From Chthoniobacteraceae bacterium (lineage in GTDB: Bacteria; Verrucomicrobiota; Verrucomicrobiia; Chthoniobacterales; Chthoniobacteraceae): a stretch of 64,000 nt of DNA. The position numbers and the translations under genes are program-made. The stretch spans positions 64,001 through 128,000 of the forward strand of contig JBBCKI010000048.1 in the NCBI GenBank assembly GCA_037190965.1, read 5' to 3'. Below are positions 17,704-60,077 of this stretch, piece after piece; within the stretch, counting starts at the first letter, position 1, and each line of letters starts with the position of its first letter. The notes beneath the pieces were generated by a model, which saw only the letters and a program-made list of their open reading frames with translations, did not search any database and was not told where the DNA came from.

Positions 17704-17868
17704 TGGTGCGGCAGCACCGGTAGCACGCTCGCGCCGTCGAGCGCGGGTATCGGCTCTCGTGGCTTCATGAAGGCTGCATCCCAATACCAGAAGCCTATCC
17801 TGCGGGGATGGGCGGCGCAAAACGCGGCTCGTTAACCCATCCCGCGCTCGCGGCGCGAGTGGTCTACC
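17704..17868 (+). repeat. REP doublet (REPIN-like) copy 1 with 5' flanking hairpin
   Basis: TGGTGCGGCAGCACC, then GGTAG-palindrome (17719), spacer, inverted palindrome-CTACC (17868). Confidence 0.88.
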
Positions 17869-30272: not shown

Positions 30273-30435
30273 TGGTGCGGCAGCACCGGTAGCCCGCTCG
30301 CGCCGCCGAGCGCGGGTATCGACTCCCGTGTGCTTTATGAGAGCCACATCCCAATGTCAGCAGCCCGTCCTGCGGGGATGGACGCGAAACGCGGCTCTTC
30401 ACCAATCCCGCGCTCGGCGGCGCGAGCGGGCTACC
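30273..30435 (+). repeat. REPIN-like copy 2
   Basis: Flanking hairpin, GGTAG at 30288, CTACC ending at 30435; spacer homologous to copy 1. Confidence 0.9.
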
Positions 30436-31932: not shown

Positions 31933-32083
31933 GCCTTCGGCCATAGGCGGCGTCGTGGAACTCCGCCCTCCCTCTACCGCGCGGCAAGCGCGCGCAGGGT
32001 AAAAGCTTCTTGATCAACCAGAGTGAAATACCCTCCAACGGAGGGCGGAGCTCCGCGACGCCGCAACCCTTGCAGCCGAAGGC
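31933..32083. repeat. second inverted-repeat (REP-like) element
   Basis: GCGGCGTCGTGGAACTCCGCCCTCC (31947-31971) pairs with GGAGGGCGGAGCTCCGCGACGCCGC (32040-32064); outer GCCTTCGGC/GCCGAAGGC. Confidence 0.75.
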
Positions 32084-38471: not shown

Positions 38472-38631
38472 GGTAGCCCGCTCTCGCTGAGAGCGCGGGA
38501 TCGGTAAGGAGTCGCGCTTGGCGCTCAACCCAGCGGGACGGACCGCCGCTGTTGGGATGCGGCATTAAGGAGAAACGAGAGCCGATACCCGCGCTCGGCG
38601 GCGCGAGCGGACTACCGGTACTACCGCACCA
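38472..38631 (-). repeat. REPIN-like copy 3 (reverse orientation)
   Basis: Reverse complement reads TGGTGCGGTAGTACC-GGTAG-palindrome-GGGTATCGGCTCTCGT...-CTACC. Confidence 0.88.
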
Positions 38632-41313: not shown

Positions 41314-41428
41314 CAAACCGGAATCGAAGCGCATCCTGTTTTTGCGCGATTTCTCCCGGCTCCCTTGACGAGACCCGCGCCGGGCCCGCACATTGGGCTT
41401 ATACTACTCTCACCATCTGGAGTTCACG

Positions 41429-42187
41429 ATGCGCCTCTTCTCTTTCCTGCTTCTCCTCGCCGCCGCCGTGCCGCTCCATGCCGGGTGGCGCGTGGAATCG
41501 TCCACCCCCCATTCGGCCAGCCCCGCCCTCACCCATTGGGTGAAAAAAGTCCGCAACGGTCGCGAGCGTCCAATGGAGCTGCAACTGGTCCTCCTCGACC
41601 GGTCCAAAACCACCCTGAAGGTGATCGACCTTCCGCCCGGGGCCAGCGTTGCCGAGGGGCTTCGAAAATCCGGCGCTTTGGCCGGCGTCAATGGCGGCTA
41701 CTTTCACCGCGACCGCACCCCGTTGGGCCTCGTCATCAGCGGCGGCGTCAAGACGAACCCTTTCCAACGCGCAAAACTGCTCAGTGGCGTATTGGCTGTG
41801 ACACCGCGCGGAGCAAGCCTGCTGCGTAACGCGGAGTACCGTGACGGCGCCCAAGTCAAGGAAGCTCTCCAGTCGGGCCCCTACCTCGTGGACCGTGGCA
41901 AAGCCGTCGCTGGCCTCAATGCCACGCGCGCGGCGGAACGAACCGTGCTGCTCGCCGACAAAAAAGGGGTGGCGGCACTCCTGATCACCCCGCCGATCAC
42001 GCTGGCCAAAGCAGGCGAACTGCTCGCCACTCCGGGGCTGTTTCCGGAGCTCAAGATCGAACGCGCCCTGAACCTCGACGGCGGAAGCTCGACCGCGCTT
42101 TGGGTGAATGATCACCCCGCCCCCTATTCCCACAGCGAATGGAAACGAGTCCGTAATGCCGTGGCCGTGATGCCGAAGAATCCGTGA
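41429..42187 (+). CDS. phosphodiester glycosidase (NAGPA/DUF2233) family protein
   Basis: Signal peptide; GVNGGYF, QSGP, ERT and ALNLDGGSST motifs. Confidence 0.87.
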   Translation: MRLFSFLLLLAAAVPLHAGWRVESSTPHSASPALTHWVKKVRNGRERPMELQLVLLDRSKTTLKVIDLPPGASVAEGLRKSGALAGVNGGYFHRDRTPLGLVISGGVKTNPFQRAKLLSGVLAVTPRGASLLRNAEYRDGAQVKEALQSGPYLVDRGKAVAGLNATRAAERTVLLADKKGVAALLITPPITLAKAGELLATPGLFPELKIERALNLDGGSSTALWVNDHPAPYSHSEWKRVRNAVAVMPKNP

Positions 42188-42204: not shown

Positions 42205-42376
42205 TGGTGCGGCAGCACCGGTAGCCCGCTCGCGCCGCGAGCGCGGGAGAGGACGCGGTGGCGCGTTCGGCTTTCATCCCAGCCAGACAAACTGCCGGTC
42301 TTGAGATTGGCAAAAATCGGGAGGCATCAAGAGACACGTAAGTCGATACCCGCGCTCGCGGCGCGAGCGGGCTACC
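42205..42376 (+). repeat. REPIN-like copy 4 (core inverted relative to the flanking hairpin)
   Basis: Flanking hairpin, GGTAG at 42220, CTACC ending at 42376. The spacer matches copies 1-3 only as the reverse complement. Confidence 0.85.
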
Positions 42377-42407
42377 TTTGCCTGTCCTCCAGAAACCCGT
42401 CCCTTGC

Positions 42408-43067
42408 TTATCTCACCGCGCGCAAGATCGGCGCGGGCGTATGCGCGGGAATCATTGACGGAGCGATTGCCCGCGATTCGGCCTCGGATTCTTTGCCGAC
42501 GTAAATCGCTTCGTCGGGCCAATCCTTGCGAAGATAACCGTCCTGCATGTTCACGCTGGGGACGTAGTTACGCAAAACCCGCACGGGCGCGAGAAGGCGC
42601 ATGGTGGAAATCTCCTCGATGGAATCTTCCCCGTGATTGCGCCGCAGGAGCGGGATCAACTTTTCCTGCACCGTCACGACGATGTCGGTGTCGCTTGCCC
42701 CGTCGATGAAAAGAAGCATGGCGATCTTCCCGTCGATTTCGGCAATGTGGCTCTCGAAAATGAACTCCGTGAAGATGGAGCGGACAAACGGCTCCTGGGC
42801 GATGTCCTGCTTGATCTGGGTGGGCGTCATCCCGATCCGGAACTTGATGATGTAAAGGTGCCGGGTCTTGAACTGGCCCGTCCCGGTCATGGAGAGATCG
42901 ACATGGGTGTGGTAGCTCAGGACGCCGTCCTGCTCCAAACGCTGGCGTTTGCGGCTCACGGTCCGGACGTTGACGCCGGTCAGTTCACCAATCCCGTTAT
43001 CGCTTTCGCGGGGGTCTCGAATGAGGGCGCGGGCGATTAACCGCTCCTGCTCGTCAAGTTCTCTCAT
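42408..43067 (-). CDS. Lrp/AsnC-type wHTH regulator with an atypical C-terminus
   Basis: LDEQERLIARALIRDPRES...IGELTGVNVRTVSRKRQRLEQDGVL; alternative start at 43094. Confidence 0.75.
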   Translation of the reverse strand: MRELDEQERLIARALIRDPRESDNGIGELTGVNVRTVSRKRQRLEQDGVLSYHTHVDLSMTGTGQFKTRHLYIIKFRIGMTPTQIKQDIAQEPFVRSIFTEFIFESHIAEIDGKIAMLLFIDGASDTDIVVTVQEKLIPLLRRNHGEDSIEEISTMRLLAPVRVLRNYVPSVNMQDGYLRKDWPDEAIYVGKESEAESRAIAPSMIPAHTPAPILRAVR

Positions 43068-43243
43068 GGCTGGGTAATCGACATCGTAGCCCATTTTTTC
43101 CTGCGGTCACGCCAAACCTCTTCAAAGTTATGATTCACCTGTAGAAACGCTCAAACTGGCCATTCGATACGATTCATTGTCCAGTTTGAGTCTCATTATT
43201 TTTAAAAAATGCAAATTTACGCCTCTTTCATGTTTAAATTGTC

Positions 43244-52769: not shown

Positions 52770-52844
52770 GCGGGGATGGACGTGACATGCGTCGCGTCGG
52801 CTCTCCATCTCCCGCGCCCTCGGCGAGAGCGGGAGTGGGTTACC
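52770..52844 (+). repeat. degenerate right half of the REPIN-like element
   Basis: GCGGGGATGGACG spacer motif plus TCCCGCGCCCTCGGCGAGAGCGGG...TTACC. Confidence 0.6.
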
Positions 52845-58649: not shown

Positions 58650-58799
58650 TATTACTGCGCTAGATTAGCGAGGGATGAAGCTTTTCTTCAACCCTCCGGT
58701 TCACCCTCTCATTCCAGAACCAAGATATAGATAGCGCGATCTTCAAGGATTTTTGAGAGATGCTTTAAAGTTCCGCGCAAGGGCGCTCCCGCGCCAATG

Positions 58800-59933: not shown

Positions 59934-60042
59934 GTGACTGAAAGCTGCGGGTCTGAGAAAAATCGAGGGGAAGAGTAAAGAGCATCCCGGCGGTTTCGAA
60001 AATGCTAAATTTTAGGACCCGGTGCAACTGATGCACCTCGAC

Positions 60043-60077
60043 GTCGATGCCCGCGCTCTCGGCGAGAGCGGACTACC
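60043..60077 (-). repeat. solo REP of the REPIN-like family
   Basis: Reverse complement GGTAGTCCGCTCTCGCCGAGAGCGCGGGCATCGAC. Confidence 0.8.

Follow-up and report, generated by a model that had tools for sequence, protein, structure and literature searches.

Background

The closest described relatives of the repeats analysed here are the REPINs of Pseudomonas fluorescens SBW25 and the BIMEs of Escherichia coli. In SBW25, inverted doublets of REP sequences enclose a variable spacer and occur as hundreds of non-identical extragenic copies; several families coexist in the genome, each with one cognate RAYT, and asymmetric excision footprints have been described (PMC3116915, PMC3337134). The "two orientations" mentioned in that work designate head-to-head versus tail-to-tail doublets and not an inversion of the spacer. 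BIME-2 and the atypical BIMEs of E. coli, associated with TnpA-REP, combine a GTAG head, a heterodimeric REP pair, conserved flanking segments, chimeras and a C-T step beside the inverted REP (PMC3333891, PMC8266576). One-sided flanks and chimeras are known for BIME-2, and TnpA-REP cuts at variable C-T sites, by which flanking DNA can be taken along (PMC3333891). The way in which RAYTs bring REPIN copies to new locations is described as an open question (PMC8266576). GTAG repeats had already been recorded in Verrucomicrobia in a description of GTAG/CGTC dimers, which also have small stem-loops beside their REPs (PMC3733652). Linker inversion and GNNA mini-hairpins go unmentioned in the portions at hand of the two E. 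coli accounts, and the word "inversion" is absent from the main text of PMC8266576 and PMC2817692. A literature search covering mostly open-access articles returned no account of spacer inversion in a REPIN or BIME, nor of a mini-hairpin occurring together with a REP and a transposase.

Two further bodies of work are relevant to the present locus. Template switching is described as inverting the spacer between inverted arms and homogenising these arms (PMC8604942). The GCGNNAGC DNA mini-hairpin is reported as extraordinarily stable, nuclease-resistant and poorly bound by SSB, and is known from single-strand origins and from the promoters of N4 (PMC13037366).

The window studied here, a stretch of 64,000 nucleotides from a Chthoniobacteraceae bacterium that appears to live in soil, contains four REP doublets and one solo REP, all of the same family. 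The fourth doublet (copy 4), at 42205-42376, carries its core in the opposite direction relative to a mini-hairpin located on one side only. Copy 4 is one of about 190 GTAG-family REPIN/BIME doublets of a genome that encodes its own RAYT for them; its mini-hairpin likely belongs to a one-sided outer flank, and its core was probably flipped in place through template switching or recombination between the inverted REP arms.

Results and discussion

Copies of the family in the window

All four doublets, each with its one-sided mini-hairpin, were recovered at the positions given by a previous sequence-only reading of the window. Copy 1 (17705-17868, plus strand, hairpin at 17705-17718), copy 2 (30274-30435, plus strand, hairpin at 30274-30287) and copy 3 (38472-38630, minus strand) have the standard orientation, copy 2 despite the perfect 29-nt inverted repeats formed by its arms; the hairpin of copy 3, at 38617-38630 on the minus strand, has a variant stem with a G-T pair. 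In these three copies the spacer end starting with GTATCG adjoins the mini-hairpin, composed of a stem of 5 bp closed by a GGCA or GGTA loop, whereas in copy 4 this end is on the far side. The mini-hairpin of copy 4 (42206-42219, plus strand), with a 5-bp stem, a GGCA loop and a core corresponding to GCGNNAGC, lies one base 5' of the GTAG head. It is followed by the left REP arm (42220-42247, plus strand), 28 nt made of a G, the GTAG head and the palindrome; the right arm (42349-42376, minus strand) is its exact reverse complement. The 101-nt spacer enclosed by these arms (42248-42348, minus strand) is reversed with respect to the hairpin, has a long end branch (0.44) and contains a small insertion. 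A remnant of the right outer flank of the family (42377-42393, plus strand) is on the side of the spacer end which, in standard copies, is turned towards the hairpin. Copies 2 and 4 are each predicted to fold as one hairpin.

The reversal of the copy-4 spacer was evaluated with a profile built from 164 standard spacers after trimming of the shared end motifs. The profile matched the reversed strand at 23.8 bits and not the other strand, the best of 1200 shuffled controls reaching 4.2 bits, which bears out the earlier statement that this spacer aligns only as a reverse complement. Copy 4 is bordered by two genes located outside the element and convergent on it, one encoding a protein with a NAGPA/phosphodiester glycosidase domain (41393-42187, plus strand) and the other a winged HTH protein (AsnC-type, weak match; 42408-43094, minus strand).

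The solo REP (60050-60077, also delimited as 60051-60076, minus strand) had been said to reproduce the copy-4 arrangement with a hairpin of its own. The junction agrees, a spacer-A-like start being located beside the hairpin-less flank as in copy 4, but the hairpin is weak: it lies at 60021-60037, on the inner side of the REP, with a loop of 7 nt where the family loop has 4 nt. A stem of this type is expected by chance at about 0.0006 per 60 bases, which amounts to roughly 5% when all 84 solo REPs are considered; neither its attribution to the family nor its dismissal is therefore warranted. A degenerate REP palindrome devoid of GTAG head, preceded by a spacer-like stretch, was also noticed at 52811-52832 of the window.

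A GTAG-type REPIN family and its RAYT

The genome (G000) totals 4.2 Mb in 73 contigs, many of which end in REPs, and is 97% complete. The REP is a short palindrome headed by GTAG on its 5' side; 460 matches were obtained in this genome when up to 4 mismatches were allowed, and 359 of them have 0-1 mismatch. Most of these (376/460) pair into 188 inverted doublets whose spacer has a mode of 91 nt and mostly measures 89-93 nt. The doublet copies are all different, with a median nearest-neighbour identity of 86%. According to our own rough gene calls they are extragenic, only 4 of the 188 lying inside genes, and convergent gaps are enriched for them (51/114 vs 274/1486). As a family they are restricted to this genome among those compared: the REP pattern gave 372 matches in G000, single matches in two of 300 same-order genomes, and no family in any of these 300. 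Searches against Rfam returned generic hairpin matches alone, far below gathering scores.

The cognate RAYT is a single-copy ORF of contig C50, which matches NF047646 with 82 bits for an NCBIfam cut-off of 80. Its translation contains the HUH motif in the form H-C-H and the tyrosine motif Y-x-x-x-N-P, and the gene is bordered by a REP of the family on the 3' side and, upstream, by a doublet without hairpin. Four Verrucomicrobiota relatives of this protein also have their own GTAG- or GTGG-type palindromes adjacent. The element is a GTAG-type REPIN/BIME with its own RAYT, which would catalyse its movement. It shares with the SBW25 and E. coli systems the features listed above, the C-T step being seen here beside the right arm, and differs from the E. 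coli BIMEs in occurring mostly as single doublets rather than arrays and in its short, nearly perfect REP stems. Compared with SBW25, one flank has a conserved mini-hairpin and decayed longer arms, which exposes the orientation of the core. As to the GTAG/CGTC dimers, their stem-loops are located inside the spacers, and the parts of that description at hand do not connect them with the GCGNNAGC motif; its figures and supplements may list related verrucomicrobial families (PMC3733652).

Other Y1/RAYT matches, on contigs C5, C9, C7 and C43, were rejected as cognate, being adjacent to other repeats or to none of the GTAG family. The third RAYT, on C5 (G000:C5:33145-33675; L004 1264-1794; 109.7 bits), is flanked by another repeat family, copies of which are also found within flanks of the GTAG family. 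Long Y1-type proteins (320-350 aa), with a truncated neighbour and no GTAG-family REP nearby, are encoded at G000:C7:29.9-31.4 kb and C43:15.2-16.2 kb (L001, L002) and are possibly of the REP-less subclass 2.1 type. Three near-identical tandem copies with a 92-nt linker form a recent BIME-like array at G000:C48:138422-139037. Doublets of a fourth palindromic family are found inside the linker that separates adjacent GTAG copies at G000:C31:88038-88228, C30:98134-98285 and C67:9991-10146. Orthologous gaps of G000 and a sister organism are often occupied by different repeat families.

Reversed cores recur throughout the genome

Tabulating the spacer orientation against the hairpin side for all copies revealed that copy 4 is not a one-off. 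The hairpin is at the usual end only in 164 of the 188 doublets (standard), at the other end only in 9 (flipped), at both ends in 2 and at neither in 13, with alignment score thresholds of 18 and 20 for the calls (a pass at 18/18 gave 163/9/3/13). An independent exchange of the ends would yield 1.3 flips and 9.7 both-end copies (Fisher P=3.6e-8). The 9 flips are far above this expectation, which indicates that both ends change together, as in an inversion; this reciprocal swap supports the earlier proposal that the core inverts between its terminal repeats. Among the solos with a far-end spacer, 4/39 have the hairpin. The right-arm motif was found on the hairpin-less side in 1/9 flips and 26/164 standard copies, a check of low power.

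The REP arms provide additional information on the event. They differ on average by 1.6 edits in flips versus 3.6 in standard copies (P=3e-4). Since the two arms normally differ in type, the crossover can be located: in 4 flips the REP type goes with the spacer (crossover in the outer part of the REP), in 1 it goes with the flank (inner part), and the 4 others have homogenised arms. One of the both-end copies has an identical rare GGAA loop at each end, and the own loop of the mini-hairpin is inverted in 2 clear copies. At G000:C12:9956-10006, a collapsed copy was observed in which a single fused REP joins both outer flanks, the spacer being gone.

The flips fall into both spacer classes. A few spacer columns are common to 4-6 of the 9, although the similarity among flips does not exceed that among random copies (0.67 vs 0.70). 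On the spacer tree, built on few columns, 9 changes are needed to account for them, and a single clade of flips is not rejected by the AU test (p=0.72; poor tree search). Given these few columns and this test result, the spacer tree settles nothing on the origins of the flips.

The flipped copies could be suspected of being assembly errors at near-perfect inverted repeats: the arms of copy 4 are identical over 28 nt, the arms of flips are more alike than those of standard copies, and numerous contigs of this 73-contig genome end in REPs. We nevertheless regard this explanation as very improbable. A contig from run X1, assembled separately at a depth of 8.8, spans 42219-42378 without any difference and joins the hairpin-type base to the far end of the spacer and the TT of the other flank to its near end. 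This agreement relies on 1-2 diagnostic bases, run X1 may itself be the source sample, and read-level support is limited to copy 4 among the 9 flips. In 7 of the 9 flips the exact identity between the arms does not exceed 21 bases, and the genes on either side of copy 4 are adjacent in the genome G004 as well.

The inverted repeats bounding the core and the occurrence of two orientations also evoke a dedicated site-specific switch of the phase-variation type that would control the neighbouring genes, and a review reports that Neisseria Correia elements invert their core (PMC10969869), these being DDE-type MITEs and not RAYT substrates. Such a switch is very unlikely here. Both neighbours of copy 4 end at the element and neither is a recombinase; the crossover is not fixed; the elements show no polarity relative to genes (27:24, P=0.78); and the copy-4 locus is present in one orientation only in the assembled contigs, which drop rare variants.

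Probable template switching or recombination between the arms

The joint swap of both ends, the more similar arms of flips, the varied crossovers and the flipping of a second family lead us to infer that the flips come from generic template switching or recombination between inverted arms rather than from a dedicated invertase. The second REPIN family has a GGAG head, with heads oriented inward, and 118 REP ends in G000, comprising a doublet in the window (31947-32064) and 117 further ends. Its RAYT, at G000:C9:~15.7-16.2 kb, is 36% identical to that of the GTAG family. In its hairpin-bearing subtype, 2 reciprocal flips were found against 4 standard copies (47 doublets in the family, many untypable). 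The outer tails of this second family are asymmetric and have hairpins with 3-nt loops, GAA in 14/16 of one tail type.

The described outcomes of template-switch inversion, namely a reversed spacer, perfected arms and one arm copied onto the other, are those observed here, but the spacers in the yeast table of that work measure 2-5 nt (PMC8604942) as compared with about 90-100 nt in the present family (101 nt in copy 4). In the sequence of events that we propose, the RAYT would spread the unit as single-stranded DNA with variable flank lengths, the hairpin would ride along with this variable flank, and occasional strand switches between the arms would produce reversed cores, arm homogenisation and hairpins at both ends. 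The hairpin strand is on the locally C-rich strand in 97/162 standard copies (97:65, P=0.015), a weak replication-strand bias based on local GC skew as a proxy and of no help in dating the flips.

The RAYT itself could alternatively make the flips. The core is symmetric, a GTAG REP starting each strand, and the enzyme would either cleave the two strands close to the outer CTAC ends or excise one strand or the other, then rejoin the core in reverse beside the same flanks. TnpA-REP of E. coli indeed cuts both BIME strands at a site overlapping CTAC (PMC3333891), the crossover is in the outer REP part in 4 of the 5 informative flips, and 77% of 162 standard copies have a C-T step immediately after the right arm. 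This scenario nonetheless seems unlikely to us, because a ratio of 4:1 is indistinguishable from even odds and includes one inner crossover, because arm homogenisation and inversion of the mini-hairpin loop require no RAYT, and because the hairpin side is devoid of C-T peak (at most 7% per position). The suggestion that the window holds an undescribed mobile system is not supported: the element is of the REPIN/BIME kind and has a cognate RAYT, template switching has already been described as inverting spacers and homogenising arms, and the second family flips too.

A conserved mini-hairpin on the strand of the REP head

The core of the hairpin matches the GCGNNAGC motif, with its closing G-C pairs and G..A loop, in 153 of 174 hairpin-bearing ends, and the motif always reads on the strand of the REP head. 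Changes in this core number 42 at the second N position and 3-8 at the other positions, the spacer columns having a median divergence of 16%, a comparison in which the overall conservation is inflated by the choice of the class on hairpin likeness; the excess at the second N might instead reflect a mutation hot spot at the C found there. The first G of the loop interior is also conserved, beyond what the motif needs. Stem changes within the family, mostly single, comprise 39 broken pairs, 12 wobbles and 8 compensatory changes, two of which are register shifts. In the sister organism, known from metagenome contigs, 4/12 REP ends have, at an identical offset, a GNNA hairpin whose 5-bp stem is perfectly paired and made of other base pairs. 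A mostly "flipped" sister lineage was considered and discarded: 11 of the 12 sister spacers match the G000 spacer profile in neither direction, and the remaining one scores 1.6 bits.

The motif is exactly that of the GCGNNAGC/GCGNAGC hairpins found at the phage G4 origins, RSF1010 ssiA and the N4 promoters (PMC13037366). It differs here by its location beside a RAYT substrate and by the conservation of an additional loop G. We predict that, on the strand bearing GTAG, the sequence adopts the extra-stable GCGNNAGC mini-hairpin fold and would help a copy to survive or be replicated. An intrinsic terminator was rejected on the tandem-gene polarity (27:24, P=0.78) and on an A-tract that is not richer when facing an incoming far gene (3.5 vs 3.3 of 8, P=0.63).

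The sequence-only reading had also raised the possibility that the hairpin is a separate repeat or target. Counting the exact hairpins of G000 without REP gave 8 of 150, the 142 others abutting a REP, and the five same-genus genomes have 0-2 exact hairpins each, like the reversed-pattern controls, i.e. at chance level. These two results make it most likely that the hairpin travels with the element, as part of a one-sided outer flank. The hairpin-plus-GTAG pattern had no match in the JGI metagenome collection and single 1-mismatch matches in 3/150 same-family genomes. Longer flanks have left decayed remnants outside the hairpin and outside the opposite arm, and these remnants are imperfect inverted repeats of each other; the one-sided hairpin and these decayed flanks resemble the one-sided flanks and chimeras of BIME-2 (PMC3333891). 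The outer inverted motif has 24 matches versus none in a reversed control, mostly pointing at a nearby REP, with 1 full pair. This pair delimits G000:C58:23203-23532 (L080), the sole full-length unit of 330 bp, where outer imperfect inverted repeats enclose the hairpin and the core. The ends of this unit are ISL3-like. A DDE-type MITE or ISL3-MITE passenger was rejected, since there is one full pair only, no target duplication beside the full-length unit and no PF01610 match, that is no ISL3 transposase, in the 97%-complete assembly.

A target reading would have the hairpin and outer flanks constitute a separate repeat or a preferred landing site into which cores insert either way, mostly in one direction. 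Several observations are consistent with it. About six core-less sites have a hairpin cleanly joined to a right-flank-like start (G000 C30:101041, C50:51030, C29:93458, C10:95255, C63:~50720 and window 58782), including the site at 58770-58795 of the window (minus strand), where a hairpin variant (58782-58795) is followed directly by this start and which is either an excision footprint or an unfilled site. A mini-hairpin variant with a swapped stem pair is located 5-10 nt 5' of the head in 20/118 REP ends of the second family. Flank and spacer are only weakly linked (Mantel r=0.07, P=0.003 with the left arm; no significant correlation with the hairpin or the right arm), and a hairpin-like remnant is present both at the sister locus L072 and at its REP-less orthologue. 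The absence of a hairpin from the doublet beside the RAYT likewise speaks against a hairpin that travels with the element. We nevertheless hold this reading to be quite unlikely. It requires that about 95% of the sites are filled (142/150) and that a separate engine moves a motif which is at chance level in five same-genus genomes, when neither a target duplication at the 330-bp unit nor an ISL3 transposase was found. A palindrome deletion at the short ACC/C repeats bordering the core could also yield core-less junctions, and these sites are most simply interpreted as excision or slippage footprints. The G004 orthologue of the copy-4 gap is devoid of such a hairpin. Orthologous empty sites are of little help in this comparison, the same-genus genomes being too distant (76-84% identical in genes) and the sister loci aligning poorly between genes.

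Conclusions

Flipping, taken alone, is nothing unusual for inverted repeats, and the conserved mini-hairpin is of greater interest. We put forward, as a tentative and rather doubtful proposal, that the verrucomicrobial REPINs studied here depend on another cis element in addition to the REP, namely the GCGNNAGC mini-hairpin, which immediately precedes the REP head on the 5' side of the active strand. This hairpin might cap the single-stranded intermediate, exclude SSB from it or prime it (or else mark the landing site), would set the polarity of copying and would be common to families with different RAYTs. If so, the flips would merely reveal that the spacer is free in its orientation and the hairpin fixed in its position. 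Because the one-sided hairpin marks polarity, in-place inversion, arm conversion and core loss become countable in one genome, with 9, 2 and about 6 cases, respectively, per 190 copies. The GCGNNAGC mini-hairpin also offers the study of RAYTs a concrete and mutable candidate cis element.
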